The notes under the pieces were generated by a model. It made no database searches. It saw nothing but the letters and a program-made list of their open reading frames with translations, and had not been told where the DNA came from. From positions 94,969-158,968 of the forward strand of contig CAJINV010000004.1 of assembly GCA_905178155.1 (NCBI GenBank): a stretch of DNA of 64,000 nt. The letters run 5' to 3'. Numbering within the stretch: position 1 is the first letter of the stretch; every line of letters starts with the position of its first letter. The stretch comes from Amoebophrya sp. A120 (Eukaryota > Protista > Dinoflagellata). Positions 821 through 62,949 of this stretch are shown piece after piece. A program made the translations under genes and the position numbers.

Positions 821-3699
821 GTGGGCGAGGTGGTCCGCAAACGCAGGACGTATCGAGGGGACGACGACGACGACTCCGCGCTTGCAATGTTAATGTACGA
901 CGAGGACGATGAGGAGGACGACGAACCCGCGCAGCAAGTTTTACTAGTTCAAGACGTCGTCGATGCTACTACTCCAGCACAACTCGTCCAACATCCTGAC
1001 GCGACAGACGCCAACCGCGGTCAGCATGATTTCAACATAATTTCAGTTCGCAGTAAGAACAAGCACGACGATCCTGCTGTGGACGTCGTCGGCGATATCA
1101 GAAGCTGCACGCCAGAAGTTGTAGCGGTAGAAGCCGTCAAAAATGTTCTCGAGGTGCCTTCTGAAAGCACAAGCAGTATCCAAGTCACAGCCCAAGGTGA
1201 AGAAGATGGAGGTGCTGGAACAAGAGGAATAGTAAAGCCGGATGTTGTTGTAAATGAAAGAGCCCGAAGAGAAACATCGCGGGCGGTCCCCGTGGAGGTC
1301 GTGGGAGCCTCGCCACGGAGCGGCATGAAGACGGCAACAAGCGTGCCAAAAATAGAAGCGACAAAGATGAGTGCCAAGGACGCGATGAAGGCATGGCCAC
1401 CAGCACCAAGTTCGTTTGCGGAAAAAGTAGTAAAAGACGACAGCTGTAAGAATGCGGCGCACGCGTTTGAGCGCATAAGGAGAACAAGCCGAACTACCTC
1501 TACCGAGGACAAAATCGACAAGCTGTTAAATCGCAACCTGGTATCCAGGAAGAAACACGTATCCCCATCCAATTTGTAATGCAAAACACGCATAAAATCC
1601 CGGATTTGTCATGCAAAAAATGGATGGGGGTGGGTGTTGTTTCCTCGATACCTGGAGAACCGCATGGCAACCGCGAACGTGTTCCTCCGTCTTCAAAAGC
1701 GCGAAGAGCCACCACAGCGTGGTTCTTCATCTATTCATCTCATTATCGATTGTAAAGATTAGATTGTGCCTGGGTTCTGAGGCGAAGGCGCCGACTAGAG
1801 CAAGATGAAAAGTCAGGATTTCTGACCAGGGCTGGAAAATAATTGAGGAGAGCCGTATCGAAATAATTAAATTGCCTGTAGTCCACCCGTTCTTGTTATT
1901 CGAAAATCTGTATTGCTTGACCGAAATCAACAACAAAAGTGCAACTTTCTTTGTCATGCCAAATTCTTGCAAAAACGCTCCTCGTCCGCTCCTAATCTAT
2001 CATCCACAGTTCCGCATCACAAGTTTTATTCCACGTATTCTCGTCGAGAGGACCCAGACGTAGTAAGTTACAATGCATATTACCCATGAAGACGACGCCC
2101 GGCAGGAGCCAGCCAGCTGCCTCGGCGGACGAGCGGAAGGACAAAGAGCTGCTCCCGGAAGCCACAGAAGTGCAGCCTCGACCAACCGCCCAGGCGCAAC
2201 GGATAAAAAATAAAGGAAGCAAAAACGTCAGCAAACACCAAAAGTGCTCTACTAGTGGAAATGACAATGCAGCGCCCCAGCAGCCGGAACCCGAACCTCA
2301 AGAGGAAGGACGAAAAGGAAGCCTCGACATGATATCCAAATGAAATAAAGCGCCCCCCCTCGCCAGAAGCAGAAGTAGAACGAACAGTTGGTATAATTGG
2401 AAACTCTCTGTGCACCCCTGCTGCTCGTGTGGATGTGCAAGATGAGGGAATAAAAAGAACTCGGGGGGCGCAACTTTTACGCATGATTATCACGACTTCT
2501 GGTAAGATCGGGCATGGTGGGGGCGTTTGTTTCCCTCGAGGATAAGTCTATCAGCAACTGGAGGATCTGATTGTCTCTGCAAGGCAGCTGACCAGTACTC
2601 CAACCTTGTCGAAGTCGTCTCCTTTCGCTCAAGCAAAGTCGACGGCCGAGCTGCATTTGGATCATCACGCTAGTAAAACGAAAAGCGGGACATCAGGAAG
2701 GACACGACCGTCACGACCTACTGCGGACGATGAAGAAAATCATCTGGATCATCTGCTCTCGAGCAACAGCACCAAAGATGCGGTAGAGGACAAAGCGGTA
2801 GAATTAGATGCCGGCCCTCTTACAACAACAACATCTTCCGAGACGATCCAGACAAGAAGTGGTCCAAGTGCTTCGCCTGCTCGAGAAGATCGCAAGCCTG
2901 ACCACGGGCAAGAAGAATGCGCTGTATCTCTCGATGTAGGTGAAAGGCGCGAGGAGGAAATCAGGAACAACGTCGCCAGCACCGTCACGGCACCGGCAGA
3001 CGACGAAGCCGCACCAGGAACAAGAAATACTGGAGACACGAAGGATAAACAAGCAGGTCCTCGCGTACCGCTACTGCAAGCAGCAGGACGCGGCTTGTTC
3101 ATCCCACGAACATCTCCAGTCGTATCTCAGCGTGAAGACGAGCCCCGATCAAGTTCAAGTTCCTACACGGAAAACGATCATGATTCTGATCATCATCGAG
3201 CGGTGGACTCGGCGGCCGCTTCAGAATGTACACGTTCCGGTCCTCTGGGCGCATCGCTGATGCTCGGGAATAAAACGAATACGAATTCCAGCACAACTAG
3301 CAGGCAAAAAAGGGCCGATTGCTCAACAAGAACCTCCTCGGAGCCGGAAGTGGACCTGAATCGAGTAGAGTACCTTGATTGGGTTCTCAATAATAAGGGC
3401 ACGACATCGGGCGCCAATGCGAGGGCCCCCGATATTAATGAAGTACAGGAGGTGCATGGTGCAGGACCACAAGCACGACGTCGTTCTGCAGCAACTGTGC
3501 AACAAGATCTTGCACTAGCCTCGGCCTCTTCGCAGGCGCAGCCTCCATCATCTTCGCAGACTGCTGGTAGCGGGGGTGAAGCCGGTCGTGTTTGCTCACC
3601 AGAGGACCAGCACGACGTCGAGAGGAAGTTGAAGTTGTCAACGAACCCGCCCCGCAGACCTATGCCCTGCTCAGCTGGAACAAGCTCAGCTAGAGCAAG
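821..3699 (+). CDS. Exons of an unknown low-complexity protein; ends uncertain, may be the 5' part of the RING gene
   Basis: Long ORFs 821-1579, 2086-2343 and 2606-3703; removing 1542-1650 plus one DR continues the frame (NRNL|ENRMATANVFLRL); GTGAGT donor at 3700. Confidence 0.45.
1542..1650. mobile_element. Introner-like element, family F (109 bp)
   Basis: tatccaggaagaaacac...gtgttgtttcctcgata; DR cctgg/cctgg; homologous to 12764-12876. Confidence 0.9.
1744..2079. mobile_element. Decayed family A-like element
   Basis: tatcgattgtaa..gcctgggttct versus gacccagacg..ttacaatgcata; DR not recognisable. Confidence 0.4.
2333..2490. mobile_element. Decayed family C/E-like element
   Basis: tatccaaatgaaataaagcgcccccc...ggggggcgcaacttttacgcatgattat; flanks catga/cacga. 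Confidence 0.4.
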
Positions 3700-4024
3700 G
3701 TGAGTAAGTACTTATGTAGAGCTGGGTAGACTTGTCATGTCTTGCAAACGAGGGCACACGAGGACCAGACACGCCGAGTCTGCTTCTTTGTGCTTGCCCC
3801 TTGCTCGTGCTCCTACTGCAACTCTGCATGTGACAAACTTTGTGCAGATTTCAAGACGGAGGTCGTTTGGTAGGTACTAGACATTTGCCACGCTAGACTC
3901 CGCCATATGGCTAAAGCAGATCAGGCGCATTTTGCATGGCAAATTGATGCAATTAGAGATCGTTCTTGTTCTGAGTAGGCCATACAACGTGCGTGGGACG
4001 GTCCGTCCCCGAGCAGCGCAGGAG

Positions 4025-4573
4025 TATCCTGTGCAAAAGTATGACACAAATAACTCAACCAAAGGCAATTTACCATCCCCCATCAAGCAAAAAAATCAAC
4101 ACAGTAATCTACTTGTATTTGTAATGCAGCTAGTTGATCTGATCTAACTATCAGGCCACTAAACTAGCTAGCTAAATAAGGTGTTTTTGGATGGTGAAAG
4201 GAGCCCGGAGATGGACTCTGTTGGTCCACGGATTCGCCCGAATCCGTGGACCAACATAGTCCATCTCCGGGCTCCTTTCACCATGCAAAGACACCTTATC
4301 TAGCTACCTTAGTTAATTATAATTAGTACATTAAAAAGTGGCCTATTTTACATGCAATTATCTAGCCTGTTTTGCACTATCAATTTTTTTTTTTGATCCC
4401 CCATGGTGTTTTAGATTTGGTTGAGTTATTTGTGTCATAAAAAGAATCGTACTCGTATAAATGCAAGTCTTGCATTGCAAAATTTTTTTTTTTGAAAATA
4501 AATCAGCGTGACAAATTTTAATTCTCATCCTGAGTAATGCATTTATACGAGTACGATACATTTGCAGTTCATA
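4025..4573. mobile_element. Introner-like element, family B (reverse orientation), with nested hairpin
   Basis: tatcctgtgcaaaagtat...tacgagtacgatacatttgcagttcata; DR aggag/aggag. Confidence 0.85.
4169..4306. repeat. Near-perfect hairpin with ~65 bp arms (MITE-like), nested in the family B element
   Basis: ataaggtg...ggtccacggattcg cc cgaatccgtggacc...caccttat. Confidence 0.9.
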
Positions 4574-4579
4574 AGGAGG

Positions 4580-6342: not shown

Positions 6343-9300
6343 GTGGACCTCGACAAAGGACGAACTGCAAGCGGGAGAAATGCAAGCGTTGCTCCTGAAG
6401 GAAACGGACAAATCGGAGAAGAAGCTCCTGGAAGAAGTGCTAGAAATGTACTTTCAACGCCGTCGAAAGCGGATCAACATGATTTGGTGGATCATCCTCT
6501 CGACGTCGACTTGCTTCACGGCAGTAGCAAAACTGAACCGCCAGCATGTTGTGCCACGAACACCAATAAGAATAAAGAACTCGCTGAACTACAACAAGAT
6601 TCGGATACTACTCCACCTGGCCACGCTGACGCGGCATCTCCTTGCGTCGCTGAGTTCGCGGGGTCCAGAGGTCAAGGCTCTGCGTGGCAGCGGCACCAAA
6701 TAAGGACCAACTTTAATCGAAGCGGGATCGCATCCGGAGCCGCGTCGGCGGGACCACGGGAGGGAAATGACAAGCAAGAACATGATCGCCCAGACTACAC
6801 AGAACAAAGCCACAGCGCTTGCAAAAATGAAGGCAGCAAAGTTCTTGTTCCGCCTGTTGTGCTGGATGATGCTGCACCTTGTTCTGGTGGCAAGGAACAT
6901 GGCGACGAGGGGGCAAGAGTATTATCGCAAGCGCGACCTCCATCGAGTCGTGGCCTAGATTATCAAGCAAAAAAGTGTTAACGTTAACGGTTTTCCGCAG
7001 ATGGCAGTCAGGCATTACAAATTTTGCCTTCCATGCATGCTACGCAATACAAATTTGCGCACCTTTTCTGATGCGTCACTGCATCACAAATTCCGTTAAC
7101 GTTAACAATTTTTCTTGTGATATAGATGACGAGTCCACCGATGGCCCCGCCCGCGTGAAAAATATCAAAACCAAAAGTACAACTTCTATGCGGCCACCTA
7201 TCCTGAGTAAAAACATCCCCACCCCAGAGTTGTCATGCAGATTTGCAATTGCAGGAATCCGCATGTTGTGGAATCCGCATCACAAGTTCAAGAAGATCCG
7301 TGGGTCGTTCAAGAAGAAGATCCGTGGGTCGTACAAAAGTAAGTAGCTCGGTTCCAAGTCGTAGTTGTTTGTAATTCGGTAGGGAATAGAGCTAGATACT
7401 ATGACACATGCGCCGCGTTTGTTTTCGTAGCGTGACATACCTGCAGTAGCGTTTCAGTCTGGTTTTGCTAGAGTTGTCGAAAAAAAAAAAGCAGGTAAAG
7501 TTTTGCAGAATAAAAGCAGAATACAAGCACCTCCCCAGTGAAGGGGAGGCGCTTGCATGAAATTGTCTTTTTCTCACAAAAAACTTAGGACGTAGCTATT
7601 TGCTGCTATGTGCGGCTTCTCTTTTTTTTTTTCTCCCGGAGCCCGGACCTCCTCCTCCCGGACCCCGAGCCTTCTCCTCCCGGCGCCCGGGCCTCCTCCT
7701 CCTGGCGCCCGAGCCTCCTCCCCCCGCAGTCCGGGCCCCCTCCTCCCGCTGCCCGGACGTCCTCCTCCCGGAGCCCAGACCTCCTCCTCCCGGAGCCCGG
7801 ACCTCCCGGTCCAGGGCATCTGTTTCATCCGGTCCAGGGCGTAGACCCTTTCGCGCGGGTTTTTTTGGAGTTTGTTAGTCAGCAGGACCCTAAGTGGGAG
7901 TAGGGTGGATCCCTTCTGGGGAAGTGCCTCGCTTTTTCGGGATGTAACAGCCACTGATCCTGGTTGACTTGGAGCTGCTACCGCTTCAAGCATTTTCCGG
8001 CAACTTCTGCGCTGCGTGCGCTCATTCTAGACCCGGTTACCCGGGGGCAGGGAAATAACGTGGTCTGCGTGCCCGTGGTTGCGAGTTTGGGTTGCAGCTG
8101 CGCTTGCTTCGCAGGCTGTGTTCAGTCTGCTTTCTGTCTTCCCCTTGGGGGCAAGTGGGGCTGGGGCTGGCGCTGTTCCCCCCATTCAACCACCGGTGGT
8201 GGGGTTCTGGGGGGTCTTGCCCTGGGGGCCAGGTGGTGGTGGAGTGGGCCGCTCCCCGCTACGGAAGCTGGGCGCGGCCTGCTTGACCCAGCCCCAATAG
8301 GCGCGGTCCAACGGGCCGCTTGGGTGTGTGCTCTGGATAACACTCGGAAGGAACGCAACGAAATATGGCGTTCTCAACTGTTACATTCTCAACTGTTACA
8401 TGAATTTGTCATGCAAAAACAGCAACAGGGAAAGGGGAAAGCTTGCAAGTCTTGCATCACAAATTTGGCACGGATTCAGATGCTGTTTAGCCCTTCGATA
8501 ATTTGTCATGCGAAGCAGCTTGATCGGCTTGCGGCTCATGGTCATTTTGCATGACAAATCATGTAACAGTTGAGAATGTAACGTTTGAGAACGCCATAAT
8601 ATCAAAACCAAAAGTACAACTTCTATGCGGCCACCTATCCTGAGTAAAAACATCCCCACCCCAGAGTTGTCATGCAGATTTGCAATTGCAGGAATCCGCA
8701 TGTTGTGGAATCCGCATCACAAGTTCAAGAAGATCCGTGGGTCGTTCAAGTAGAAGATCCGTGGGTCGTACAAAAGTAAGTAGCTCGGTTCCAAGTCGTA
8801 GTTGTTTGTAATTCGGTAGGGAATAGAGCTAGATACTATGACACATGCGCCGCGTTTGTTTTCGTAGCGTGACATACCTGCAGTAGCGTTTCAGTCTGGT
8901 TTTGCTAGAGTTGTCGAAAAAAAAAAAGCAGGTAAAGTTTTGCAGAATAAAAGCAGAATACAAGCACCTCCCCAGTGAAGGGGAGGCGCTTGCATGAAAT
9001 TGTCTTTTTCTCACAAAAAACTTAGGACGTAGCTATTTGCTGCTATGTGCGGCTTCTCTTTTTTTTTTTCTCCCGGAGCCCGGACCTCCTCCTCCCGGAC
9101 CCCGAGCCTTCTCCTCCCGGCGCCCGGGCCTCCTCCTCCTGGCGCCCGAGCCTCCTCCCCCCGCAGTCCGGGCCCCCTCCTCCCGCTGCCCGGACGTCCT
9201 CCTCCCGGAGCCCAGACCTCCTCCTCCCGGAGCCCGGACCTCCCGGTCCAGGGCATCTGTTTCATCCGGTCCAGGGCGTAGACCCTTTCGCGCGGGTTTT

Positions 9301-12300
9301 TTTGGAGTTTGTTAGTCAGCAGGACCCTAAGTGGGAGTAGGGTGGATCCCTTCTGGGGAAGTGCCTCGCTTTTTCGGGATGTAACAGCCACTGATCCTGG
9401 TTGACTTGGAGCTGCTACCGCTTCAAGCATTTTCCGGCAACTTCTGCGCTGCGTGCGCTCATTCTAGACCCGGTTACCCGGGGGCAGGGAAATAACGTGG
9501 TCTGCGTGCCCGTGGTTGCGAGTTTGGGTTGCAGCTGCGCTTGCTTCGCAGGCTGTGTTCAGTCTGCTTTCTGTCTTCCCCTTGGGGGCAAGTGGGGCTG
9601 GGGCTGGCGCTGTTCCCCCCATTCAACCACCGGTGGTGGGGTTCTGGGGGGTCTTGCCCTGGGGGCCAGGTGGTGGTGGAGTGGGCCGCTCCCCGCTACG
9701 GAAGCTGGGCGCGGCCTGCTTGACCCAGCCCCAATAGGCGCGGTCCAACGGGCCGCTTGGGTGTGTGCTCTGGATAACACTCGGAAGGAACGCAACGAAA
9801 TATGGCGTTCTCAACTGTTACATTCTCAACTGTTACATGAATTTGTCATGCAAAAACAGCAACAGGGAAAGGGGAAAGCTTGCAAGTCTTGCATCACAAA
9901 TTTGGCACGGATTCAGATGCTGTTTAGCCCTTCGATAATTTGTCATGCGAAGCAGCTTGATCGGCTTGCGGCTCATGGTCATTTTGCATGACAAATCATG
10001 TAACAGTTGAGAATGTAACGTTTGAGAACGCCATAATATCAAAACCAAAAGTACAACTTCTATGCGGCCACCCACGAAAATATCAAAACGAAAAATCCCC
10101 CCTCCCCATATCAAAGCGGAAATCTGTGATGCAGATTTGTTGTCACAAATCAGCTTTGTTATGCTACACGGGAAAAGATGCGGACTGTAGTGCTGGGTGG
10201 CGTGGGGGAGCCTTGCATCTTCAGCATGATAGGAGGCAGCTGAGAGTGGGAAACAGCATGACAAATTGCCTGCAAACGAGACCACGACTGCGGCTCTTGG
10301 CCTTCTAGCATGACAAGTCGATTTGGTACCTCAAATCCTGCATCACAGATTTCCATTTCGATATGGGGAGGGGGGATTTTTCCGTTTGATAGAAAATGTC
10401 ATCGACCACCAGCACGACACCCGCAATCGACTGGGCAGAGGAACTGGCCAGCATCAAGGCCGCAAAACGCACCCTGGGTGCCGCGCGAGGAGGTGGAAGT
10501 GCTGGTGGACCCAGTTCTAGTAGCACAACTACAACTTTCACTTCGGTCCCGACCGCGGCTGCCCTTGCCAGTCCGCGCCCGCCAGTTTTGCCGCTTCCAC
10601 CTACTGGAGCTGCTACGACCAGCACGACCCCATCGTCATTTTTTTCAGACGGTCGATATAATTATGTCACTGAAAGAACTGAAGACAAAAGGTCCACTTC
10701 TCCAGGCGCTTTTTCTTTGTCTGTGGCACACCGCCGCTCTCTGGCTGCCACGAAGACGACGCGGAGTAGTTTTCCGAAAACAAAGACGCCTGAAGGTATG
10801 AGAACCGACGCTCATCGTGATAGCGCGCAACAAAGTAGCCAGCACAAAAAGGGTGCTGCAACGCGGGCAGAGGACCGTGGCTGTAGTTTGTGGTCAGCAG
10901 CATCTCCAAGTAACTTGCCGAGGACCAGCTGGGACGCAGAAGACCAGGATCAGGAATATGGCTACTCACTCAGGTGTTCTTACAAGCTCAGCTGTAGTTT
11001 TTACCACAAACAGGCGTGGACTTTGTCGTGCATGAGCAGCATGGGGAACATGCAGAGTCTTGCGCAAGCTTATCGCAATACTACAAATCTCGCCGGATGT
11101 CACGGGGGCTTCGGGCAGCTCCGGGACTACTTGTTATGCGCAATTCAGTGAGAGTAGGCCTAGCCCTACGCCAGATCGTGTCCTTCTTGATGCGCGTCGC
11201 AGTAGATTTCGACTCCTGTTGTAAGTAGAACGGTTGGCATTGTAAAACACCTGCGCAGGTCATAAAAAGAACGTAGTGGCTGATCATCTTTGCCCCGATT
11301 TGCAAAATAAGAACGAAGGCGACCTCTGGGCCGCTCTTGATGATAGTGACGACACCGGCGCTCTTGGTGCTGCCCAACATGAAGAGAGCGGAAGCGATAC
11401 GTCGCCAAGATGCGCTGTTCTCTCACACGGAACCTGGCGAGCAGAAGCACAAAGCCTCTGTAGGCCAACGACACACACAGGAGCGGCCATAGCAAGAGCT
11501 ACGCAAGGACAGCACCGTAATACTAGCAGGAGAAAACGAAACGTAGGAATAAAGATGCGGCAGAACGATCGTTACACCCTTACTTCATCTTCACAAAACG
11601 AAGACTCCGCGGCAACAGCGCAGCACCTATCTGCGAAAGAGATTCTAGCCAATCCCGAGGAGAACCAGATGCGAAAGCGGATGCAGCTGTCATTGGCGGA
11701 GATCTATCTTCTGCAAAAGTACTCGTCTAAATAATCGCGCTAGTCACACATGTTAACAGAGCAATCCGCATGACAAGTGCAAATCTGTATGAAGTTTTCC
11801 ACTTGATGAAATACATAGGTTGCCAACATGCAATTTCCACTGGTACGTACACGTAGTACGATTCCGATATATTTGAAGTTGAACTTTTGCAATGCATAAG
11901 ATGGCCGACGACTGGGATGCAAAGCGGGAACGGCTCGTGGCGGCGGCAGAAAAAAAGAGGCTGAGGAAAGCGTTGAACAGGGACGAAAGATTGTCCACAG
12001 GCCACATCAAGGAACTACAAAGCATTTCCATGCAAGAAAACCAAAACAACGGCAACAAGAATAGCCACGACGACGACCTGCGAAAAAATCGCGGAACACC
12101 ATCTAAAACCGGGGCGCCGTGGTCCTCAGAAGATATAATAACACGAAGTAGTACAAGAACTACTAGAAGCGGCGCCGGCGCGGCCCCGAGAAGAACACTT
12201 TCTGTAGCAGAAACAAACCTTCCTGGTCCAGAAAGATCTGATGTGCAGAACAACAAGTACCTCGGAGGGGGCGACACTACGCCGCATGGTACCCGCGTGC

Positions 12301-15300
12301 AGAAGATTTTGAAGGAATATGAAACTGTGGCTCACCGCGCTTCCCGCGATGGTGAAGAAACCGACATGCTGAATGATCCATGGTGCGGCGACCCTTCTAG
12401 CGCGGTAGAGATGGTGGACAAGCTAGAGGTACTAGAAGATCAACATGGGAGGAGGTGGAACAAAAGCAATGACTTTCATATGCTGAAGAACCATCAGCAC
12501 GGACCGTGCGGAAGATTCCTCTTCCCTGGGGGTGAAGGAGAAGTGTCTGCCTCTCCGACAGAACAAGCCCCAAGACTCTCGGAACTGGTCCTCGTGCACG
12601 ACCCGGTGGCTGCAGCTCCGAGGACTCGTGAAGATTTCGAGACCCTAGTCACCACCACGAAAGCAGCACCTTCCGACGCCGTGGTCGCATCAGCGTCGTC
12701 AAGGAGTAGTAAACTTCGTATCGTTTCGGAGATTGAAAGAGAACGAACGGAAATTGACCTGCATATCCAGGAAAAAACACCCATACCCATCCAATTTGTC
12801 ATGCACAGCATGCATAAAGAAAGTCCACTATTTGTCATGCAAAAAATGGATGGGGATGGTTGTTTTTTCCTGGATACTGCAGCTGGAAATGTTACAGCAA
12901 CAGCGCCGGATGAAGAAACAGCAAGGCCGTAGTTGTTCGAAGACGGGACCACGAGGAGCAGTAGAACTACATGGAGCAGAGGACCAAAAAGGCTGCGCCG
13001 TCGATGCTGGTGCGACCGAGCCCGAACAAGAAGCTGCGGAACCATGGGCTCCTGCACCTGGTGCAGCTTGTTCACGACCTTGCACGGGGAATTTTCATTC
13101 GCCAGGACCACGACTCCGACTGCTGGATCAACAGCAAAGAGAGGCGATCATGGGGGACCAGCGTGGATTTGACCCGGAGCTGCTGCGCGAGGAAAACAGG
13201 AACGACGAAGCCGGCGCCGGTGGCGAGGCAGCAGGGAGGGCAGGGACTACTTTTTGTTCATCTTTGCGCAGAACTACAAGCGGTGGGAACAAGCAGAAGA
13301 TGCGGGCGGACCAGGAAGTGGTAGCCGAAGGAGAAGTGGTGCAGCAAGTCCGTGGAGGTGAAGATGGAAATAACACGGACTCGTGCAATTATACCAAAAG
13401 TTGGGACAAAGGTAAAGCAAATGAGATGTTGACCACCAGGAGCAGCAGGTTGCAGCCAGCTCCTGCACTTGAAGTAGGAGCTGCACAACGAGAGGAGCTC
13501 GACGCCTCGCGCACCTCCGCGGATATTCATTGCAAAAGTATATTCGCACCCGTCGTAATTATTGCGGTCATGCGTGAGAACAAGAAGTCTCATTTTCTAT
13601 CTGTTCTAGCATGAAGCATACAGATTTGCTCCGTTTTGCATCTTCCTGAGAAAATTTGTAGATCATGCGATTTCCATTTCGATTTCTGCTACCACGATTA
13701 TACTTTTACGATGCATAGCGGAGATCCTGCGGCAACTGGTGTTCGACGTCGTTCCGGAAGTAGATGCAAATAAAGGCGACGCAGGTGCGGCTGGACGAGA
13801 TGTTGACCACGAGCAACATCCTTCCACTCATGCCTTGGATGAGGACGTCGACTTCTTACCACATCCCCCGAGGACGTCTTCCACCAGCACAAGCACCGCG
13901 TTCGCCGCGCGACACGAAGATTGGCTGGCACGGGCTGAGGGGCGAGGCGGAACATCAAATAAACACTCTGGAGCTGCTGGCCGCGGGGAAGACGAGGAGG
14001 GAGAACGTAGTACGGAAGTAGAACAACGCGTCGTGGCACGACGAGGCGAACGGGTGGAGCAGGTCGGTGACAGCGAGCAGGTAATGATCTTAAACAGACG
14101 CTCAAGTGGAACAGATGTGGAACAAGCACAACGTGAAGATGATCCGTATCACCTGCATTCGCAACAACTTTGTCCTGCCTCGTCAGAGGACTCACGGCCA
14201 GGGTCGGATGAAACCAATCTTCGCTCCTCCAACACTAGGATTTTGGCGGCAGAGGAGCCGCGAGCGGTGGACGATCTCTTCAGTTTCAACTTCGAACGTT
14301 ATTGAATGTGAAAAATACGTGATAGATGTACTTTTGTGAATGGACGGCGGCTGCACATCACATCTAGCTTCGCACGTTGACAACGATGAAGATGGCATGT
14401 TGCGCATGGAGGATGCCTCAACTTCAGCCTTCTGCTTCTCGGGGACCTTCTGGCGTCTGTATGACTTCCCTTGTAGATCACATAGTCGTGTTGGGAAAAG
14501 CAGGCGTGTCAACATACAACTACATTTTTCGTAGTTAACATTTTTCAGTATACGTATGCGATGTGCATGAGCGTCAGCGTCTATCTGGAATTCACAAATT
14601 TTTGCACTGCATATGGTTGATGTTCTTCAAGATGATAACTTTCTGTCAGCGCGACACGGGAACAACCACGACACGACCCGTCGAGGAGCGGCGGCTTCCA
14701 CATTGATTAGCAATACCGAGGGTCCTCGTGGTCGTCCTCTTTCCGCCGCGGCGCCCCGGGCTTCTGGGACGAGGACAGCGAGTAGTCGATTGCGGCAACC
14801 GCGGACCATCATGTCCCTGCTGCAGGGGAACAACACCAGCTGGGACGGAGCTTCCCGCGGCCCGGGCAGCTCAACAACAGGTACAACAATCCCAAGAGCT
14901 GCTGCATCTTCAGCATCTTCGTCGTCGCGGACGGACGCTCTGTTGCAGCAGCTGAATTCCAACGGCAACCTGGAGGAGGCACGCCCGGCAACCGCACCAC
15001 AGCAGCTGCAACGCCATGGAGTATCAAAATGAAAAATCCCCCCTCCCCATACCGAAAAGATTTAATATTTTTGGAAATTTATGATGCTGATTTGTGGTCA
15101 CAAATCGTGTCTGTCTTGCGAGAAGGCAACTCCGCAGGTTCCGCCGCATTGTGCAGGCGGTTTGTCATGCTGTGGGGCATACAGTGCTGACGTTTTTCGT
15201 GCTAAGTGCCTAGGCCAAAACCTCTCTACTCGTCACACTTGGCATGGGGCTGCAGTGCTCTCCAGCAAGACAGCGCGGCTCTGTGTACACAAGGCCAGCA

Positions 15301-30729: not shown

Positions 30730-31042
30730 TATGGAAGCGTCAGAATTGAAATCGTCAAAGTTGAAATAGTTTGCGATGCATAAAATGCTAGACGCAAAGT
30801 CAAAGTGCCTGTCTTGCAGAGCAGCCAACTGAGGCCGATTATAATCCTGTTTGGGGTGTGAGACAGAGCTGCTAAAATAGCATGACAAAAGCTGTTTCCT
30901 CTGCCCAAACAGAATGACAAATTGGATTTCCATGCTGCCAAAATTTGTCATGCGCCACTTGCAAACTGGGCTCCAGCTGGTATCGCTTTTTTGCATTACA
31001 GATTATTTCAACTTTGACGATTTCGATCCTGACATCCCCATA
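30730..31042. mobile_element. Introner-like element, family H
   Basis: tatggaagcgtcagaattgaaatcgtcaaagttgaaata...tatttcaactttgacgatttcgatcctgacatccccata; DR gggtt/tggta; homologous to 33523 and 44165. Confidence 0.85.
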
Positions 31043-39007: not shown

Positions 39008-40022
39008 GCCTGATTGCGGGGGTGGTCCTGTTGAGGAGTCATAGATAAGTACCGCGGACACGAGCAGATGCTCCTTCTCATGAATCACTAATGCGAAGAG
39101 TTAAGTATGTAGGCGTCGACATCGTGGCTGCTCCAACATTTTTCACAGCTTGAGCTTTGATTTTGATAAATTAATTCTGATTTTTCCAATGCTGCCATCA
39201 ATACAAGAGTTTCACGACGAGCCTCGTAAGAAAGCGAGCACATCAACACGGTGATGTTGAAAACCTGCATACGTTTCAACCATGGTGCACAATTCAGATA
39301 TTGACATATGGTAAAGTCAACATTTTCCTAGCACCAGGACCTCCAGCATCAAGTCGAAATTAATAAGCCCCCCTTCGTCGGTACTACGCAATTACTTTAT
39401 GTGCTATTCGAATGAGGACCTCTAGTACCTGGAGCATGCACTTTATAATAAAGCGTAGCTCGGTTCGTTCTGAATGCAAGTTTTCATTCGATGATCATGT
39501 GACAAGTAGGCTCGCAGGAGCGCCATCTGCTTATCATATTATATGAGTAAACAACGACCATAAGGAGCAAGAGTGCCTTGGTTCGTGCGCTCATGAAGAT
39601 GGAGCTCAAGACACTCAACGTGGCGTGATATGATCCTAAACCACCACCCAAGGCTCGCCGAGGGAATAAATTCAGAACGCCAAGTGTGTTGTGGTGAACG
39701 AGTGAAGCATTAACAAAAGTCAGCGGGCTCCTCACTCTTGTGCTGCAAACATCAAAAGAAAGCACTTTATTTTTCAACCATTTTATACTGGAAAATTAAA
39801 AACAACGGGAAGAAGATTGTTCTGCTTCGACTTGTTCTAGCTGGTATACTTTTTATAAATTTTCAAGTTTCTTTTTTTGGTGGGTCCGGGTCGTACGACT
39901 GTAATATTGAAGTTGATGAATTTTGGACGGCGCCCACATCGTGCACGATTGGCCCGACAAGGAAGAACACGACTGTGCTTGTCATCGGGAGGTACTAGTA
40001 ATCTAGAAAAACCACGGACATC

Positions 40023-42690: not shown

Positions 42691-43210
42691 TAGAAAAGGG
42701 TTGCAAGAATGGTCTTCTTGGTCTCGTCGAAATAGTAGATTACGTAAACGAACGAAATAAAACTGCCGCTCCGCCTTACTAGTGCGTCTATTTTGTTATT
42801 GAAACAACTCAACAGTCCAAGACAATTGATACAAAAAAGAAAATTGTCAAAATCCTATGAGGAAAGCAGACGTGGGTGCCGCGTTATTGATAACGATTAT
42901 TAGTGTTCTTTCTATACATAGTGATAGACTGAACGACGAGCCTCATAGAGTGGTGCCGTCAAGAAGAAGATCAGGAGTTTTCCCACTGCGAAAAAAGAAG
43001 GGCTGGTAGTGTCAAGACAATCGTGCAGAATGTTGCGTACCACGATATCGTGAGTAGCTTGTTTATGTCAGGCAGCCACACCTACGCGTACGCCATGCAG
43101 GATCCCGTTTTTCCGTCAGGTCTGGTACAGATTTTTGCCATGATCTAGACTTTACATCACAAATTCGAATCCATTCAGGAGACCCAGCAGACATTTTTGC
43201 ATTTGATGCG

Positions 43211-48211: not shown

Positions 48212-51200
48212 ATGGGAGCGCCGTCGACGGGACAATACAAGCTGGGCTTCCTTGGGGGCGGCATGATGGCAGAGGCCTTGATCGGCGGGATCTTAAAAAA
48301 GTCCCTCGTTTCGCCGGAGTCTATTTTCGTGTCTGACATGAGCGCCGACCGTTTGGCCGTGCTGGAGAAGAAGTACAAGGTTCGGACGACGCAAGAGAAC
48401 GGCGAAATTGTTTGGCAGTCCGACGTATCCTGTGCAAAAGTATCGTACTCGTATAAATCCGCTGCTGGCATGCATATAACTTCTCACCAACCTCTCACCA
48501 ACTTATCATGAACTTCTGCCCAAGCTTTTCACCAACTTCCCAGCTGTTGAGAAGTTGGCGTGGACCCTTTACCGCGGTTGTTGGGAAGCTTGATGCGGAG
48601 TTGAAATCCGCACCAAGCTCCCCACAAGCTTGAGCTTCTGGCTAGGACGTCTGAAAAGGAATATTCGTCCGGGCCTCGATTCGTGGCCGCGTACGCAGTC
48701 ACGAATCAGGCTCCGTGATGGCCCTACTTCGGCTGCTAAGCTTGTGGAAGATAATTTGATAATCTTCTGCACCAGGAGACTTTCGAGGTCCTTGTCGTGC
48801 ACAAAGCAAGCACTTCTCGACGAACACCCCGGCGCATTTCGCGGTAAGCTTCGAGCTTTTGGAGGCGTCATGCAAGTTTTTGCATGACGCCTCCAAAAGC
48901 TCGAAGGTTGCCGCGAAATGCGCTGGGATGTTCGTCGAGAAGTGAAGCGAGAAGTTGTTGAGAAGTTGTTGAGAAGTAAGTTATTCAATTCGGCCATAAT
49001 TGATGTAGGACGCACGCAACGTCGCGGCTTTTTGTTAAAACAATTAAAACGCAAGCACAAATCAACTCACTTATTTAATATAGGCAATTGACTAATTAAT
49101 AGATTAATCAATTGATTACGAAGTGGCGCCAAGTGAAAACGGAGCAGGGGCAAAGCTTGCACGCCGAAGCGGCGCGCAGCTCCACGCACATCGTCGAAGG
49201 CAGCTATTCTCCCTTCCGGCGCTTCCGTCTTTGATGGCTGCACGCAGGACAGGTGCGCGCGCGCAGACATCACGGTCGCGCTTCCTGCCGCCTCTTGTAT
49301 ACGGCTTTGCGCGTGGTGCCGTCGTGCTAACTGATGAGACTGCGCTGCAGATAAATGGACAGAACAGGACTGCCGTCTTCTTCCCATTTGTCTGCAGCGC
49401 TGTTCCTTCCCGCTCCAAGCAGCGAGCACGATATAACTCGCAGCGGCGGAGTGACGCGTCGCTTGGTCGAGGCGAGAACGACGCCAGCACGCCGCGCCAC
49501 TTCTCACCGACCTCCGCACCAACTTCGCGGCCGACTTCTCGCCAACTTCTCCGTCAGTTTACGCATAAAAATGCTAGCGGATTTATACGAGTGCGATACT
49601 TTTGCACAGGATACGACGTGATCCTTATCGCCGTAAAGCCGCAGGGTTTCCCCGCCTTGTGCAAACAGGTGGATCAGTTTTTGGAAACGAAGGCGTGCCA
49701 GCCACCTGGAGCAAACTCATCTCCAAAACCGCGGTATCCGGCTGGCAAGGTGTTTGCGAGCATTATGGCGGGGGTAACGCTACTACGCATTGCAAATTGA
49801 ATTTATATGTCTGGGTCTGGAATAAACCTGTAATGCTATTAGCGACTGCAGATCAACATGCTTATATTTATAATACATACCGCTGAGTGGAGCCCAGCGT
49901 GACAAATTCTGAGGCGCTTTCTGATGCGTAGCGCGCTCGCGCATTAGATGAAACTGCGCTTTTTCATATAGGAAACAGAGCTCGTCGCTTTTGTATTTGT
50001 TGGTCCTGCAGTACAGATTCTGCAGGAATCCAGAACACGCAATGCAGGTTCAACTTTTATTCCCGACCCAGAGTACATATTTGCGATCCATAACTGCAGA
50101 CGCTGGGGGAAAGCATCGGACGACACGGTGACGTAGTGCGGGTCATGCCAATATCAACTGCAAATATGTGTGGGTCTGGCAGATTACCAGGTTTGTCTCT
50201 GTCTGGCATATTTTGCATGACCCGTGATGCTTGTGATGCATGCGCTAGCATCACAGATTTTTTGAAGCAAGGCTTCCTGATGCCTATCTCGCATGTTGAC
50301 AAATGCCCTCCCCTCGTAGCACAAACTGGACTCCTCTTGCTGGTCCTTACGCAATACAGATTTTCATTTTTTTAGACTCCAAAGACAGCATGATCACAAA
50401 GTGCAACCTTCCAGAGGACCCAGACCTATTTGCAGTTGATAGCCCAACACACCCGCCATGGTCAACGCAGCGGCGTCCGCCTACGCCCTCCACCCCCTGC
50501 ACTTCTCGAAGGACGGCGAGGCAAAGGTGCCCTTTGTGGAACAGATCTTCAGCAGCATCGGAATTTGCTGTCAGGTACCTCTACGGATACGACAACTTGT
50601 TTGTCATTGAAGGTCTTCTACTTGATTCGTTTGGTTGCAGAAAGAACTAGAGCCAGCCCAAGAAACTAGAAAAAAAATTTCTTTACTTATTCTTGCTTTA
50701 GTGAATAAAATGAACATGGATTTACTTCCACGACGTATATGTTGTATAATGGCTGTGTTAGAAGAAATGAATGCCGTGACGATCTTCTTCTGACCTAAAA
50801 CTCAACTCCATCTGTATCTCATTACACGATCCGACACCACCACCACCACCACCAGCTTCCGTCTGAGACTTACATGGATGCAGTGACTGGGCTCTCTGGA
50901 TCAGGACTATCGACCGAGTATCGAAGTAGTTCTAATATTACCTGCGCCGGCAAGAACTACGCCGCGACCTTTCCTCCGGAGACATGCATTTTTTGAATAA
51001 TACTTGCTCGTTGCGCTTCCGGTTGTACTTAACTCTAAAGTGCCTTACGTTAAAAGCAATTCAAAATGATTTCAAAAGGAATTCAAAAAAGTGCACTTTT
51101 CGTTTTTCCGTAAAATTGGGTGTGGATTTCCTTCATTTTTTCGGATGCGTGGCTTCTTTTTTCGGCGTCTAATTTCCGCCCTGTGTCTGGCGGCCTAGCG

Positions 51201-56600: not shown

Positions 56601-57246
56601 TCAATAAATTATGTACATTGATGATGGAACATAGATACATAAACTAGCGCGACGAGGACGCAAACAGCGTGATACCCGACGAGATCTTTATAGTACGACC
56701 CGACCAGGAGAAGAAAGAGAAACGGTGTCCGCGCAGTCTGTGTTGGGAAGGCGAACGTCTTGGATATAATCAATCGACTTCCTACACGAAAACTCAGTGC
56801 GCGGGGCCAAAAAGCGACGATCCTGCGAAAAAATAAAACGGAGGCGAGCAGGTCCCGACGTCTGAGAAAAGGAATACACAGTGGTCGTGTACCGTCGAAC
56901 AACCCATCAAGTTCAAGTACAGAAGAGCTACTGTTCACCTCCCACCGCCGATCGAATGAGTGGCACTGAGGCGGAGCACGACGGGACGGGCGCACCGACG
57001 GGCCGTGGAGCAGGTAGCTCCACACTGGCTCATCTTCCCGATGCCGCCTTTATGACGCCACCGCCTGCGTTGGGCCACCACTACAGCTAACCAAGAGATA
57101 TTTATGCATGTGGTACCATCGGGGTCTGGATTTCATTGTTTGTGCGCACTGTTGTATTTTGATTTGCTTTTTACGACCGCCGACTTCTCTTGATATTAAG
57201 GTGCAGCTAATGCATAAGACAAAACAGCGCACATAAGAAGAAGAAC

Positions 57247-59075
57247 ATGCTAAGTTTTATTTTATCTACAAACATCAGCAATAGCAACTGCGCAGTGGCA
57301 TTTCGTTTTTCGTGTGCAGCTGCAATTCCCAGACCCGGGTCGGTGTTTCCCTCTGGTTTTTCAATTGATAGAAGCAGCACGACGAACGCGATGTCTACGC
57401 CAACCCCGCGCCTTGCGCAGTCCGCACACGCGAGCTTGGGCGCAACTAGTTCGACTGGGTTGCAGCTGCACGACAGCGCCGGCCCAACATCGACCGCACC
57501 AGCCGCTGGCAGCAACGAGCAGCGGCTTTACGGCGGCTCATCGAATAGTACGTCGCCCGGCGGAGAGCTGCACCAGGGCCAGGTAAACCATGCTACAGGT
57601 GCACGTCGGCCAGGAGATCACCTCCATGGGCAGAATCTATGCATTGCAGAAGTATCGTACTAGTATAAATTGCAGACACAAACTTTGGCGAGAAGAAAAG
57701 TGGAATTTGTAATGCTGTTTTACCTTAGGAGGGAGATTTGTCATTCATATTTGCAATTAGTACGACTACGATATTTTTGCACAGGATAGCATTTATCCAC
57801 AGCCAAGACGCCTCCACCGAGCAAGCAGCACGCCTTTGCCGCGGGCAACAGCTCTACTTCGTATATTGGCACAACTACTAGCACTACACCACCGTCGACT
57901 ACAGGACCGTCGGCCCGGGGCGGCCAGCATGCTGGTGCTGCAACAGGCTACGAGCGAGGATCTTGGGGGGCGGGAGGTGGTAACAGCACTGGAAATAAGA
58001 ACGTGGGTGTTGTATTGTGAGGAAAAATCCCCCCTCCCCATATCGAAAAGGCATGCTTTTCAAAATTGGCGATGCTGATTTGTGGTCGCAGATCGAGTCT
58101 GTCTTGCAAGAGAGCAAAGCCAGGGCCTCCGCTGCATTTCGCAGGCGATTTGTATGCATAGCCAGGACTTCCGCATGCTGCTACGCTACTAGGGCAGACA
58201 TCTGCCATGCTCAGTGCCTACCCCACGCCACCCCTTTCCGGGCTTTGTATCTGTCTACAGTCCTCCGCCGCAAGACAAATCCACAAATCCTGCGTCACAG
58301 ATTTCCATTTCGATATGGGGAGGGGGGATTTTTCCATACGATATCTTGCGGGGGTCAATCCGCCTCCTCCGCCCGCTCCGCTAATCCGAGGACACCATCA
58401 TGCGGCGTACCTATGCAACAAAAAAAGTGTGGAAGTAAGTGTAAGTCTGTGATGCAGAAAATGTACTAAAAAAAAATGCAGCAAAACAGTTACGGTTGTC
58501 ATGCTGGCCAGCCATTATAGTGTTCTTTTTTTATGCGTGTTTTCAATGCTACTAGCTGTGCATGACAGGAATTTTCTGTCATGTAGAACGAATTTGTCAT
58601 AATGCTGTGACCGCCCCAAGACGCCTACTCTAACGCTAACGCAGTTTTTTTCTTGGATAGTACCAGCAACGCTTTCACAGCTCTAGCAGCGGCGTAAATA
58701 ATACGTCCTCGTCAGGAGGTCTCGGAACCGGAACCGCCGCGACAGGTGGCGCGGCCGGAGCAGGGCAGCACTTATGGACTGCAAAAGGATCGCGCTTTTT
58801 TCTACTTGTCGTGTGCAAAGTCATTATTATCAATAGATTCCAGATAATTTCGTGCTTCTGAAAGTAGCACTGTTCTTGATAGACGAATTTAGATTTACTA
58901 CACAGCAGTACTAGAGCAGATGACAACTTCTACTTTGTTGGAGTAAGACACATCTACTAAGTCGGTGCTCCTGCAGCTTGCCACGACACAGATATTATAA
59001 TCGTAACAGGAGGTGATGATCCTTTTGCACAGGATAGTGGCAGTACTCCCAGCAACAGCACCCGAATTCGGTGAA
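57247..59075 (+). CDS. Probable multi-exon gene, S/T/G/Q-rich unknown protein
   Basis: ORF 57247-57663 followed by GC-rich segments between four TAT...ATA elements; no domain recognised; boundaries uncertain. Confidence 0.35.
57638..57788. mobile_element. Family B element
   Basis: tatgcattgcagaagtatcgtactagta...tacgatatttttgcacaggata; DR gaatc/gcatt. Confidence 0.8.
58013..58343. mobile_element. Family C element
   Basis: tattgtgaggaaaaatcccccctccccatatcgaaa...tttcgatatggggaggggggatttttccatacgata; DR tgttg/tcttg. Confidence 0.9.
58412..58659. mobile_element. Family G-like element
   Basis: tatgcaacaaaaaaagtgtg...cgcagtttttttcttggata; DR gtacc/gtacc. Confidence 0.82.
58773..59036. mobile_element. 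Decayed family B-like element
   Basis: tatggactgcaaaaggatc...gatccttttgcacaggata; DR lost. Confidence 0.6.
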
Positions 59076-60325
59076 CAAGCAACGCAGAGTGCGTGGCGAG
59101 CAGCATCTTTTCGTCGAAGAAAGCGTCTTGAAGCTGAACCTTATCTCGTGGAAAGAACAGTTCTGCGATCCTTAACTTTATCGATCCGGACGCTCGTGTT
59201 TTTCTTTTTGCTAAAGAAAAACGAGGCAGATGATAGAGACGTGCACGACTTCAGGATGTTTATTGTGCTCCTGTTGTTAAGCAAGTAGATGGGACACTGA
59301 AGAGGTAGAGGTGGCGTAACCAGAAGTTTGCGCGATGGAAGATGGCCGCATGCACATGCTTTTACACATTCTATAAATTTGTTTTCTTTTCGAAATCAAG
59401 CAGTTGCACCCGAGGCGCGTAGTACTGCGTGCTTTTGGAATATTGAAGCGTGTGCATCAACCACTTTTTCTGCGTCCGAGGCAGAAACTGGGCGTTCACG
59501 ACCGAATCGATAGGGGTGCAGAAGTTGTTTTCTTCTCCTTGCATAAAACTAGGAGAGTCGCGGTTCCGGCAACGGGATCTAGAGCGCTGGTCCGACATCA
59601 CGCTCACAGAAAGTATAATAATATGATCATGATGTGGTTCTTTTATACTCTACTTTAGGCTCCTTGCATAAAATAAGCCTGTGACTCGACGAACAAGAAG
59701 TTGTGCTTTCTTTGTTTATGCTGTGAAATTACTACAAATGCAGAAGGACGTGTCATGCAACTGAAGCGATCATAACTGGAACTGGCAGCACGTTTACTAG
59801 TAAGTTTAAGTTACCAATACCAACTACATCCGCGCTGGGGTAGTGCAACCTGTTTCTACAATTTCGAACTTTTAATCAGACAATCTACTTCTTGACCCGC
59901 TTCTGTACACCGACGTGCGCGTGGACCTGGCTGGAAACTACCTCGGGCCGTCAGCTCTATCCTCGGAAAAAAAAAACGGACTTGCTCAAGAACAGCAATC
60001 TTGCAAAGTAGACACAACCTCCCTGGGAGGTTAGGCCCGCCAGGTAGCGTCATGTAGTTACTACAGTCGAAGTTTCTTCTTTCTTGAATGAAGACGAAAA
60101 AATTGTATGTGAACAAGACGAAAAAATTTATATATCGAAATCCAACTGCTCGTTGCCGCTGGCGTTGGCTTCAAAAGAAGTGTCACTGCAGCTAGTGAAG
60201 AATGTGTTGAATTTTTCTTCGAGTCTTGCTGGTGCTCGATGTTTCTTTTCCGCTTCCATAACCTGCCGGAGTGTTTTACTTCACCCAGCGGCTTCCCTTG
60301 GCGTTGCATCAGCGGACCACCTTGT

Positions 60326-60474
60326 TATGAATTGCAAAAGTATCGTACTCGTATGAAAGCATTACAAATTTCCTCAGCATGAGAAATAAAATTTGTAATG
60401 TAGATTTGCCTTGGAAACAAGACTTGTAATGCAGGACTTGCATTTATACGAGTGCGATACTTTTGCACAGGATA
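60326..60474. mobile_element. Family B element
   Basis: tatgaattgcaaaagtatcgtactcgta...tacgagtgcgatacttttgcacaggata; DR cttgt/cttgt. Confidence 0.92.
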
Positions 60475-60808
60475 CTTGTCACTCGCTGGCAATCAATTGA
60501 CGGGGAAGGCAAGCGGGCTAGTTTCAGGTAGAAGAACGACTTCTGCGATTGAACATTTTTGAAAACAAGATGAAAACCTACAGTACGAACAATAATAACT
60601 CATCTGCGAAGGGGGCTTTCCTGTTGTAGGAAGCTTGTGCTTGTATAGAAGAAGTACTTTCCTCCTTGCAAATATGGTGCTGTCTACTTTTCTTTGATTG
60701 ATATTAACAATCAAAGAAAAGTAGACAGCACCAAAAAATTAAATGATTCCTGTGGATTCTTACAAGACTAATAAACTACGTACAAACTCATTCACATCTA
60801 CTCTGCAG

Positions 60809-62949
60809 ATATGATCGAACTGGGGGTGTGGGAAGAGCTTGTATCCCGTACAACAGCATCGCACTCGTAGTAATTGCGATTATCTATGCATTCATACAAA
60901 TCTTCATCCCAGGGTAAAACATTTGTCATGCAGCTGAGGTAGTTTATTGTAATGCAATTACCACTGGTACGATGCTGTTGCAATGCATAGCTTGACGTCA
61001 GTTGCAACTACTTCGAAAACGGGGACTTGCTCGATTTCGTGCGCCGAGCGGTGTTCTCCGGGAAGTACCCGAAACAGGTGAACATGCCCGTAGCGGCAAA
61101 AACGGAATTACCCTCATCCAGCGTTGGAGGAACAAGTAATGCACTACAAGAACCTCCAGTCGCTGGGGACAACGAAACGAGTGGAAAAAATGGCTATCAT
61201 GTATCGAGCAAAAATCTGTTATCGTTTATCGAATTGACAATTTGAAGCGAAAGCGACTATTTTTTTAAAGTTAGCTAGTGAGGGAGCTATCTTTGGCCCC
61301 GACTATTTTGATGTAGTTAGGTGCGATCGGTCACCCTTCTGGGGCAGCAAACGCTGAACGAGACGCGACCGATCTTGAGGTGGTGGCGGTCGGGTTCCAG
61401 TGTCGCGCTGGCATCCCAGGCCGGACTCGACGTCCGATCTTTGCCTCATGTCGCAATTCCGCCTGAGAACGCCAAAAGAGTAGACGAAGACCACCTTGCC
61501 CGAGAAAGCTCATGCGAAATACCTGCCACTGCGGTTGCAGAAGTGCCGGCAAAAGAGGAGAGATGAGGCGCAACGAATACGGATCGGCCTCATCCTGTAG
61601 TCTCAGCTTCAGCCCCGAGGAGGGCTCAGACACCGCCTCGCTCTGTCTGCCCACCATCTCGCGGCCACCATCGTCGCCGGGCTCTGACCAGACAACTGAT
61701 TGTTGTCTTGTTATCGGTTTGGCCTTCCGAACCGATAAGAGGCATTTAAACACGGCGGCACGCGGACTATAAAAGTGACCAAAAATGGTGCTTGTTATCG
61801 GTTTTGCCGGAGGCCTCTGAAAAATAGGCAATTTGGGAGGTCAAAGTTGCCGGATTTCCGAGTCCCTGTCCAAAACCGATAACATCGACGCTTTTTGGTC
61901 ACTTTTATAGTCCGCGTGGCACCGCGCTTAGCTCCATTTTTCAGGCCAGATCCCGGCGACGATGGTGGCCGCAAGATGGCGGGCAGGCAAAGGGGGGCGG
62001 TGCCCCGGTCTTGCTCGGTGCTGAGACGGGGAGTACAGGATGAGACGGAGCGGCATTCTTGTTGCCTCGTCCCTCCTCTTCCGCCGGCACTTTTGCAACC
62101 GCAGTGGCAGGCTTTTCGTGTGAGCTCTCCCGGATAAGCTGGCTTTCGTGCACTCTTCTGGCGTTCTCAGGCGGGATTGCGAGTGGGGCCAAGATCGGAC
62201 GTTGAGTCTGCCCCAGGATGATTTGCGCGGCATCGGAACCCGACCGCCAGCACCTCACGATCGGCCACGTCTCGCTCGCCGTCTGCTGCCCCAGAAGGAT
62301 GACCAAATGCACACAACTGGATCAAAATAATCATGACAAAAGGTAGCTTCTTCAGCAGCTAACTTTAAAAAAATTTTCGCTTTCGGTTGCAATCGTTTAT
62401 TCGATAACGATAACAGATTTTTGTTCGAGAACCTCCAGTCGCTGGGGACATCGAGACGAGTGGAAAAAATGGCTATCATACCGCGACGAACCAAAATGCG
62501 ACTTCTACTGCGGCACCCAACGGCATCAATCAAGGGCCACAGCTACTATCCAATGGCGTCGCTAGCGGAAGGGGCACGCCGACCAGTGCCAGAACCAGGT
62601 CCGTGCCACTCTTGCTGCGGTTACACAGCTATGCATTCTTGCAAAAGTCATATCGTACTAGTAGAAGTCGCATTTTTTTACAAATATCGCTCAGCATGAA
62701 GAGAAATGACAATGGGATTTGTCACACGGCCGCACCTTAAGAAGGGGGTTAGGGTTTGTCATGATGCATGATTGCGATTACTACGAATGCGACGCTTTTG
62801 CAGTGCATAACAGCAACCACGAGGCAGAGCTGGAAAAGGAAGCGCGAGCGGCGCTAGTGGCGGAGTTCGGGGACCGGCTGCAATTTGTGGAAAACACGAC
62901 TCTATCCACTACAAAAGTCTTTAAAATCGTACTTGCATTTGGGAAGTAG
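60809..62949 (+). CDS. Partial gene for an unknown protein with one LRR-like motif; upstream exons likely near 60.2-60.5 kb
   Basis: Manual splice: MIELGVWEEL|DVSCNYFENGDLLDFVRRAVFSGKYPKQ...GKNGYH|TATNQNAT...PLLLRLHS|NHEAELEKEARAALVAEFGDRLQF. Confidence 0.5.
60842..60989. mobile_element. Family B element (reverse orientation)
   Basis: tatcccgtacaacagcatcgcactcgta...gtacgatgctgttgcaatgcata; DR gcttg/gcttg. Confidence 0.85.
61152..62480. mobile_element. 1229-bp foldback element with family G-like ends, flanked by 50-bp direct repeats of exon sequence
   Basis: DR acctccagtcgctggggaca.cga.acgagtggaaaaaatggctatcat at 61152 and 62431; arms about 61202-61807 versus 61871-62430 are diverged inverted copies. 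Confidence 0.9.
62630..62809. mobile_element. Aged family B element
   Basis: tatgcattcttgcaaaagtcatatcgtactagtag...ctacgaatgcgacgcttttgcagtgcata; DR acagc/acagc. Confidence 0.82.

Follow-up and report, generated by a model that had tools for sequence, protein, structure and literature searches.

A helically spaced internal motif in the TAT...ATA introner families of Amoebophrya sp. A120, a candidate transposase-binding site

We analysed a 64,000-nucleotide stretch (the window) of the dinoflagellate Amoebophrya sp. A120 (contig CAJINV010000004.1, positions 94,969 to 158,968), in which genes are interrupted by elements that begin with TAT and end with ATA. These are the known A120 TAT...ATA introners, which carry 5-bp target duplications. 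A short motif inside them, TGT[ACG]ATGC, is confined to the elements and found there on both strands; it is better conserved than the bases around it, follows a helical spacing and decays with the age of the copy. This sequence pattern suggests that the motif copies are probably subterminal double-stranded DNA sites bound by the DNA-binding domain of one transposase, which would mobilise all the TAT...ATA families.

Introners account for 17% of the A120 assembly and have been sorted into 1954 families, with the mover and the borders left unnamed (PMC7789003; this and the other publications cited are represented here by part of their text). The window elements resemble the published A120 introners (PMC7789003, PMC12130899), which come from the same organism, have inverted repeats that start with TAT and contain a stretch of A, have short direct repeats and are excised at borders other than GT-AG. 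The terminal inverted repeats (TIRs) of the window elements likewise start with TAT and hold a stretch of A, and the short direct repeat was a target duplication of 5 bp in 71 of 77 family A copies found without using the duplication. They also form repeated families, with 16 multi-copy clusters and an estimated ~720 stretches for one TIR pattern. Among the A120 families tabulated by Gozashti et al. 2025 (PMC12130899), fam38 is entered as '5-bp TSD, TA/TA Termini' (TSD, target site duplication) with integrase-like homology, and most others are unclassified TIR elements. The text of PMC7789003, figures aside, describes terminal and direct repeats only and calls the border unknown; it mentions neither an internal motif nor a spacing rule nor a single offset of −1/+4 (described below), although in its S23 legend the repeats stand 1-5 nt away from the splice sites. 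We found neither the motif, its spacing nor the single offset in the text of PMC7789003, PMC12130899, PMC12005148, PMC11282704 or bioRxiv 2020.10.14.339549, of which Figs 3, S19, S23 and S25 of Farhat et al. could show part, and no dinoflagellate paper was among the matches listed for the motif string. The elements were already known, and the internal motif, the spacing and the single offset go beyond the text compared.

A sequence-only reading of the window had proposed that one motif is shared in both orientations by all TIR families, with several copies per element, and every string that it quoted lies where it had been placed (1571, 1604, 7012, 7081, 8404, 8454, 8501, 8549, 10123, 10340, 16289 and 16321). 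The window contains 104 matches to TGT[ACG]ATGC (58 plus, 46 minus), and permitting T at the variable position adds only six. Curated elements, 50 in number and 14,714 bp in all, hold 93 of the 104 (6.3 per kb), as against none in 14,534 bp of exon and 11 in the remaining 34,752 bp, four of the 11 falling in partial element ends at 7231-8714. When the elements were shuffled by dinucleotides (n=200), the mean was 2.9 matches and the maximum 9. The 4.5-kb exon 23245-27763 (plus strand), in which the motif had not been noticed and which serves as a negative control, indeed has no match. Within elements the two strands are balanced (52 versus 41, p 0.30), in genes that read on the plus strand where tested.

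Since the window list was curated by hand after the motif matches were known, an independent set from a second assembly is the cleaner test. There, 283 elements from 173 distinct loci of one other public assembly were defined by TIR and perfect 5-bp duplication alone, and 275 of them have at least one match; the loci were fetched with a family A TIR pattern, so that family A is over-represented. The motif is present in 16 of 16 multi-copy clusters. It belongs, however, to every family and not to every copy: 12 of the 50 window elements, mostly old ones and among them 62630-62809 at the far end of the range first proposed, lack an exact match, and to this extent the original claim has to be narrowed. 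With a matrix trained on the second-assembly loci the motif becomes wider, AWYTGTVWTGC, so that TGTVTTGC and TCTCATGC variants are covered; at 10 bits the matrix finds 147 matches in the window elements versus 2 in exons. Enrichment also holds against other DNA: six insertions of another class, a GT-AG intron and an intergenic stretch together contain one exact motif and score at background level with the matrix, and the 3.7-kb stretch 53160-56900 has no exact motif. Rfam returned no match, and the family A TIR pattern had no match in viral contigs. A likeness of the motif to the Sox-Oct composite site was treated as coincidence.

The sharing of the motif is not explained by families that align end to end. 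Among the 50 window elements, BLAST gave seven cross-family pairs unmasked and none once the motif was masked. A more sensitive comparison of 15 masked consensus interiors put 8 of 105 pairs above z 4, so some clusters are old relatives and the families are not all independent; we therefore merged clusters to 10 groups, leaving the weak links 10/14 and 2/4 out of the merging. In 15 of 15 family alignments the motif columns are more conserved than other interior columns (for example, 0.88 versus 0.67 in family A), a comparison that somewhat favours the motif, as its columns were defined on the consensus. Families H and C have a near-identical layout of sites despite different TIRs and spacers that barely align. 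The families may descend from one old element, of which the motif and its spacing outlasted the remainder.

The sites are not placed at random within the elements. Same-strand copies lie 30-33 bp apart in 22 of 67 pairs, where 1000 randomisations gave a mean of 3.4 and a maximum of 14, and direct copies 31-33 bp apart occur in 9 of the 10 merged groups. Three turns of B-DNA measure 31.5 bp, and a period of 10.5 bp is a signature of B-DNA; a spacing of about three helical turns is thus what a multimeric DNA-binding protein would select. Measured from the element end, inward-pointing sites cluster at ~33-34, 41-45, 56 and 63-66 bp or, grouped otherwise, at 33-34, 41-45 and 63-81 bp, with a peak period of 10.25-10.5 bp (Rayleigh R 0.63, n=25; equalled in none of 10,000 random sets), and the remaining same-strand spacings are likewise in phase (p 0.0012); these p values overstate the case, as a family's two ends are not independent of each other. 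In family A, the 31-bp spacer 41-72 is unchanged in 85% of 182 copies versus 43% for the neighbouring spacer. In families A, C, D and H the first sites at the two ends mirror each other. A fully symmetric 171-bp element of the second assembly (L002 5114-5284), with inward sites 33 and 64 from each end, shows the layout at its simplest.

We followed the motif with copy age in 363 of 402 copies (duplication matching at 3 or more of 5 positions, less than 15% gaps), of which 361 are in families of at least five. Across four age bins of the 361 copies, private substitutions at motif sites rise 4.5-fold (0.012, 0.020, 0.037 and 0.054), close to the duplication-mismatch clock of the same bins (0.042, 0.033, 0.049 and 0.074, which counts two copies). 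Substitutions at the TAT/ATA tips stay at 0.009-0.019 across the bins. Likewise, motif changes are more frequent in copies with decayed duplications (259/7598 to 85/1837, p 0.015), while tip changes are flat (19/1651 to 6/440, p 0.63). Motif substitutions rise with age at about the level of the clock, and yet the motif mutates at ~0.4 of the interior rate in every age bin. Positions 8-30 of the family A TIR, which are biased by the search pattern, were excluded from the evidence. Divergence from the consensus by duplication class was uninformative as a measure of age, the low-match classes containing mis-called ends.

These observations make a common trans-acting factor, as first suggested from the sequence, likely: the motif is conserved above other interior columns in all 15 family alignments, and by BLAST the families of the sequence-only reading do not align once it is masked. 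Of the options that had been put forward, transposase binding fits best, by virtue of the helical spacing. Under this proposal a number of protein subunits would sit along one face of the helix and place a catalytic domain at the TAT/ATA tips, whose insertion would have a 5-bp stagger. The sequences of TIRs and spacers would be free to drift, giving many TIR 'families' under one system, and the motif would be selected in lineages that keep transposing and would decay after insertion. Removal from the transcript is a separate step, which in the contigs falls 1 nt ahead of TAT and 4 nt past ATA and takes out the element and five bases of any identity.

A number of results weigh against a single transposase. 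Outward-pointing sites are unphased across the 10 groups (R 0.27, p 0.28), and the dependence between the two ends of a family, mentioned above, weakens the phasing statistics. The distance from the end to the first site is unchanged in just 40% of family A left ends, and the 31-33-bp spacers are not the most stable ones in every family. At family A right ends the first site is bimodal (39 copies at 34, 77 at 42-43 and 7 between), and this 34 versus 43 split may reflect one deletion event. The constant motif-to-interior mutation ratio would also result from partial constraint after insertion. The 1188-bp element 48426-49613, with a perfect duplication and near-perfect TIRs, has no exact motif. 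Nor did we find the enzyme: Pfam detected no transposase in the 22 frames scanned (9 + 13; only pyrroline-5-carboxylate reductase and a weak F5/8 match), a regular-expression search for transposase motifs in the window and ~440 kb of non-redundant loci gave three unconvincing matches, and the six TIR pairs longer than 500 bp include none with a recognisable frame and no autonomous element. Farhat et al. 2021 (PMC7789003), in the text drawn on here, report putative transposases only in A25 and none in A120, and argue against a general transposase-mediated mobilisation in A120.

The missing enzyme, absent from the frames and loci scanned and from the A120 report, leaves room for a host DNA-binding protein (a bending, chromatin or transcription factor) that binds the motif and that the elements exploit for transposition or for being tolerated; the helical grammar implies a DNA-binding protein without saying whose. 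We consider such a host factor unlikely. Its sites would be expected near promoters, yet the 34.8 kb outside elements and exons hold just the 11 matches described above, and 53160-56900 holds none. Moreover, phasing to the element tip suits an enzyme that cuts there.

The motif had also been proposed to act as a strand-symmetric splicing signal, perhaps the real recognition code, and transcript evidence bears on this. Skips of elements were read in contigs of a run (X1) that was taken as RNA only by guess; at least 14 skips were listed, together with one more joint. In X1 contigs the depth is zero in 7 of 30 bins, and the elements are skipped; contigs of another run, X5, pass through the elements at even depth. 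Raw RNA runs X8-X10 gave 1, 0 and 0 aligned reads and carry no weight here. In 15 of 15 placeable joints the skip equals the element plus five bases, and the sole offset that fits all 15 is 1 nt ahead of TAT and 4 nt past ATA (−1/+4), unambiguously so in three. For the elements at 33523, 33949 and 34298 this offset predicts 179 bases between two contig pieces, as observed, with one duplication displaced. Removal at −1/+4 restores open frames of 1276 and 1743 aa and the N-terminus of the reductase. Elements of both orientations are skipped within a single contig. The borders so defined are not GT-AG: A, C, G and T are all seen as the first base of an intron, 5 of 15 introns start with GT (a G followed by the T of TAT) and none of 15 ends with AG. 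On folding of 11 introns the ends pair in 10, the exception being 35161-35342; a terminal stem is thus usual in the folding models, which does not imply that it is required.

Among 19 elements with RNA support, three (2333-2544, 13524-13717 and 14300-14613) have no matrix match of 6 bits or more and a fourth has only weak matches. The cut is placed relative to the TAT/ATA tips and not to the motif, whose distance from the end varies among families. The motif is therefore probably not the splice signal, because introns without it are excised, it decays with age while the tips stay, and the cut tracks the tips. A looser form of the idea has the motif act as a strand-symmetric and redundant enhancer of splicing, recognised either in RNA or, during transcription, in DNA, and guiding a U1-less machinery to these introns; this form gains something from the several sites kept by nearly all copies and from the low mutation rate of the motif relative to the interior. 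U1 has not been detected in A120, and the mechanism of splicing there is unknown, in the text of PMC7789003; also, contigs reveal the presence of the spliced form and not its efficiency. Excision of the three motif-less introns, the tip-bound cut and the contrasting ageing of motif and tips nevertheless make such an enhancer improbable, and a 10.5-bp period points to B-DNA. That plus and minus copies merely pair in RNA to extend the terminal stem, or that the motif is a passive relic of an ancestral long TIR, is very improbable in spite of the mirror-image first sites of families A, C, D and H and the few consensus pairs that still align when masked, since family F has only direct copies, which are unable to pair, with both F copies skipped, pairing gives no reason for one sequence to be held in families that do not align, and a relic would fade no later than its own spacers.

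A close likeness to this excision is found among euglenid nonconventional introns (PMC11282704, as far as its text is represented here), which share non-canonical junctions, terminal pairing, a stem offset from both cuts, a probable origin from miniature inverted-repeat transposable elements and a removal mechanism that is unknown. Those introns have CAG/CTG at +4..6 and −8..−6, often with pyrimidine|purine junctions, whereas the introners have TAT/ATA at +2..4 and −7..−5 and all four bases at the first position.

If the motif binds a transposase, two superfamilies are candidates by analogy: 5-bp duplications fit hAT5, and TA..TA ends fit IS3EU/GingerRoot. The hAT elements (Hermes BED sites, AAACGG of Ac/Ds, hAT5) likewise have several short sites in both orientations inside the TIRs. 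Subterminal repeats of Hermes are precisely phased, and the phasing is critical (PMC10368747); non-autonomous Ds1 shares with Ac only the TIRs and hexamer repeats (PMC3260210); and hAT5 makes 5-bp duplications (PMC12730594). The introners have both the 5-bp target duplication and the subterminal repeats in both orientations that mark hAT5. They differ from hAT in a site of ~10 bp rather than 4-6 bp, in pairs 31-33 bp apart and in TIRs that vary greatly from family to family. A hAT transposase with BED and dimerisation domains was found neither in the window or the ~440 kb of loci (regular expression) nor in the 22 frames (Pfam). With IS3EU/GingerRoot the introners share TA..TA termini (PMC10045372, PMC6839031), which in fungal IS3EU read TAYGG..CCRTA (PMC12730594). 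The duplication of that group is usually 6 bp, a length seen in none of the 77 introner copies scored, and a subterminal motif was not found in the portions of its descriptions that we compared. No autonomous copy with an integrase-like DDE transposase turned up among the TIR pairs, loci and frames scanned.

The individual elements of the window (TIR families lettered A to H) illustrate these points. Family F introner 1542..1650 (109 bp, duplication CCTGG) has direct motif copies at 1575 and 1607, 32 bp apart, with none in the opposite orientation, and is skipped in an X1 contig; the second, 12764..12876, has two direct motifs 36 bp apart and is also skipped. Old introner 1744..2079 has a decayed duplication, two remaining exact motifs and an unambiguous −1/+4 joint. 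The joint of old introner 2333..2544, which is skipped with no motif-like site, is likewise unambiguous. In old introner 3661..3984 the exact motif is gone and matrix matches persist, its sole RNA support being a contig piece that ends at 3657. Family B element 4025..4573 contains a nested 400-bp TAT...ATA element (4040-4439), which has its own 5-bp duplication and encloses a near-perfect 144-bp hairpin (4166-4309). Family G introner 6961..7122 (duplication TAGAT) has minus motifs at 7012 and 7081. Family D is represented by 8364..8598, with four motifs (+,−,+,−), which is the first copy within a 1436-bp tandem duplication, and by 9801..10035, which lacks a target duplication and gives the third unambiguous joint. 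The tandem duplication itself (7163-10035; 1435 positions identical) may be real or an assembly artefact, and holds a partial C-type left end and the family D element without target duplication.

Further along, family C introner 10081..10391 (duplication GAAAA) has four exact motifs. Skipped elements include old introner 10957..11264 (no exact motif, two weak matrix matches of 9.1 and 7.8), old B-like 11705..11898 (one exact motif), old B-like 13524..13717 and old introner 14300..14613 (both without a motif-like site), family C 15022..15348, family A 15434..15794 (minus) and 15842..16096 (plus), two neighbours of opposite orientation skipped in one contig, and family B 16256..16395, whose motifs point outward, 35 bp apart. 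Four elements at 21267..23244 (A 21267-21625, A 21921-22209, C 22572-22883 and A 22960-23244) precede the 4.5-kb exon, and removal of the last three at −1/+4 yields the 1743-aa frame. Then follow H 30730-31042 and B 31132-31271 (30730..31271), six elements at 33523..36342 (H 33523, A 33949, C 34298, old B 35161, C 35706 and A 36081) and eight at 37274..44487 (long C 37274, A 38693, A 40189, A 40542, A 40946, old A 43046, G 43257 and H 44165). The long C element, 37274-38376, and a second-assembly element (L027 505-1608), both of 1.1 kb, share ~540 bp of interior at 84% and differ in their TIRs (C-like and H-like), which suggests an exchange of modules or a common nested insert. Nine elements, at 57099, 57638, 58013, 58412, 58773, 60326, 60842, 62630 and 62903, occupy 57099..63130, and five of them have no exact motif. 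Altered tips were seen at 31132 (CAT start), 49784 (TAC start) and the right ends of 40946-41268 and 43046-43208, which are not ATA.

The pyrroline-5-carboxylate reductase gene was identified from exon 52891-53154, whose 88 aa are 100% identical to protein P0001 of Amoebophrya sp. A120 (75% for the A25 orthologue). It holds three non-canonical introners. The first is the 1188-bp element 48426..49613 with B-type TIRs, which has one weak matrix match (6.4) and an internal hairpin (48811-48944) and whose removal restores the frame; the others are two family A elements (49784..50441), 49784-50092 and 50152-50441. Even with its TAC start, 49784-50092 gives back the reductase frame when it is taken out at −1/+4, so some change in the tip is tolerated. 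Beside them lies a 2.3-kb GT-AG intron (50576-52869) with no exact motif. Six insertions of 0.7-1.75 kb with flanking direct repeats of 41-81 bp (16689-18180, 18200-20049, 29098-30315, 36450-37269, 45240-46748 and 61149-62479) are a second class of element with very long duplications; they contain almost no copy of the motif, internal palindromes occur in several (61226-62407), and Pfam gave no match in the frames scanned. A perfect 39-bp inverted repeat with a 1-base loop lies at 53612-53690.

Taken at its widest, the proposal is tentative: it is possible, but doubtful, that all A120 TAT...ATA families are one transposon system, in which a phased array of the 10-bp motif and a three-base tip give specificity while the TIRs diversify freely, and that the host removes the elements by a junction-blind −1/+4 ruler that works without U1 or GT-AG. 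With a shared phased motif the 1954 families would reduce to one mobilisation system. If the one-system reading is true, the motif points to the missing A120 transposase, whose superfamily would have TA..TA ends and make 5-bp duplications, and the ruler amounts to a splicing pathway of its own. The motif offers a bait for pull-downs and a signature for locating the autonomous element, and the −1/+4 rule lets annotation place intron borders exactly and gives the study of U1-less splicing a defined substrate. Telling the two signals apart indicates how a transposon-derived intron can lose its putative mobility signal and stay an intron.

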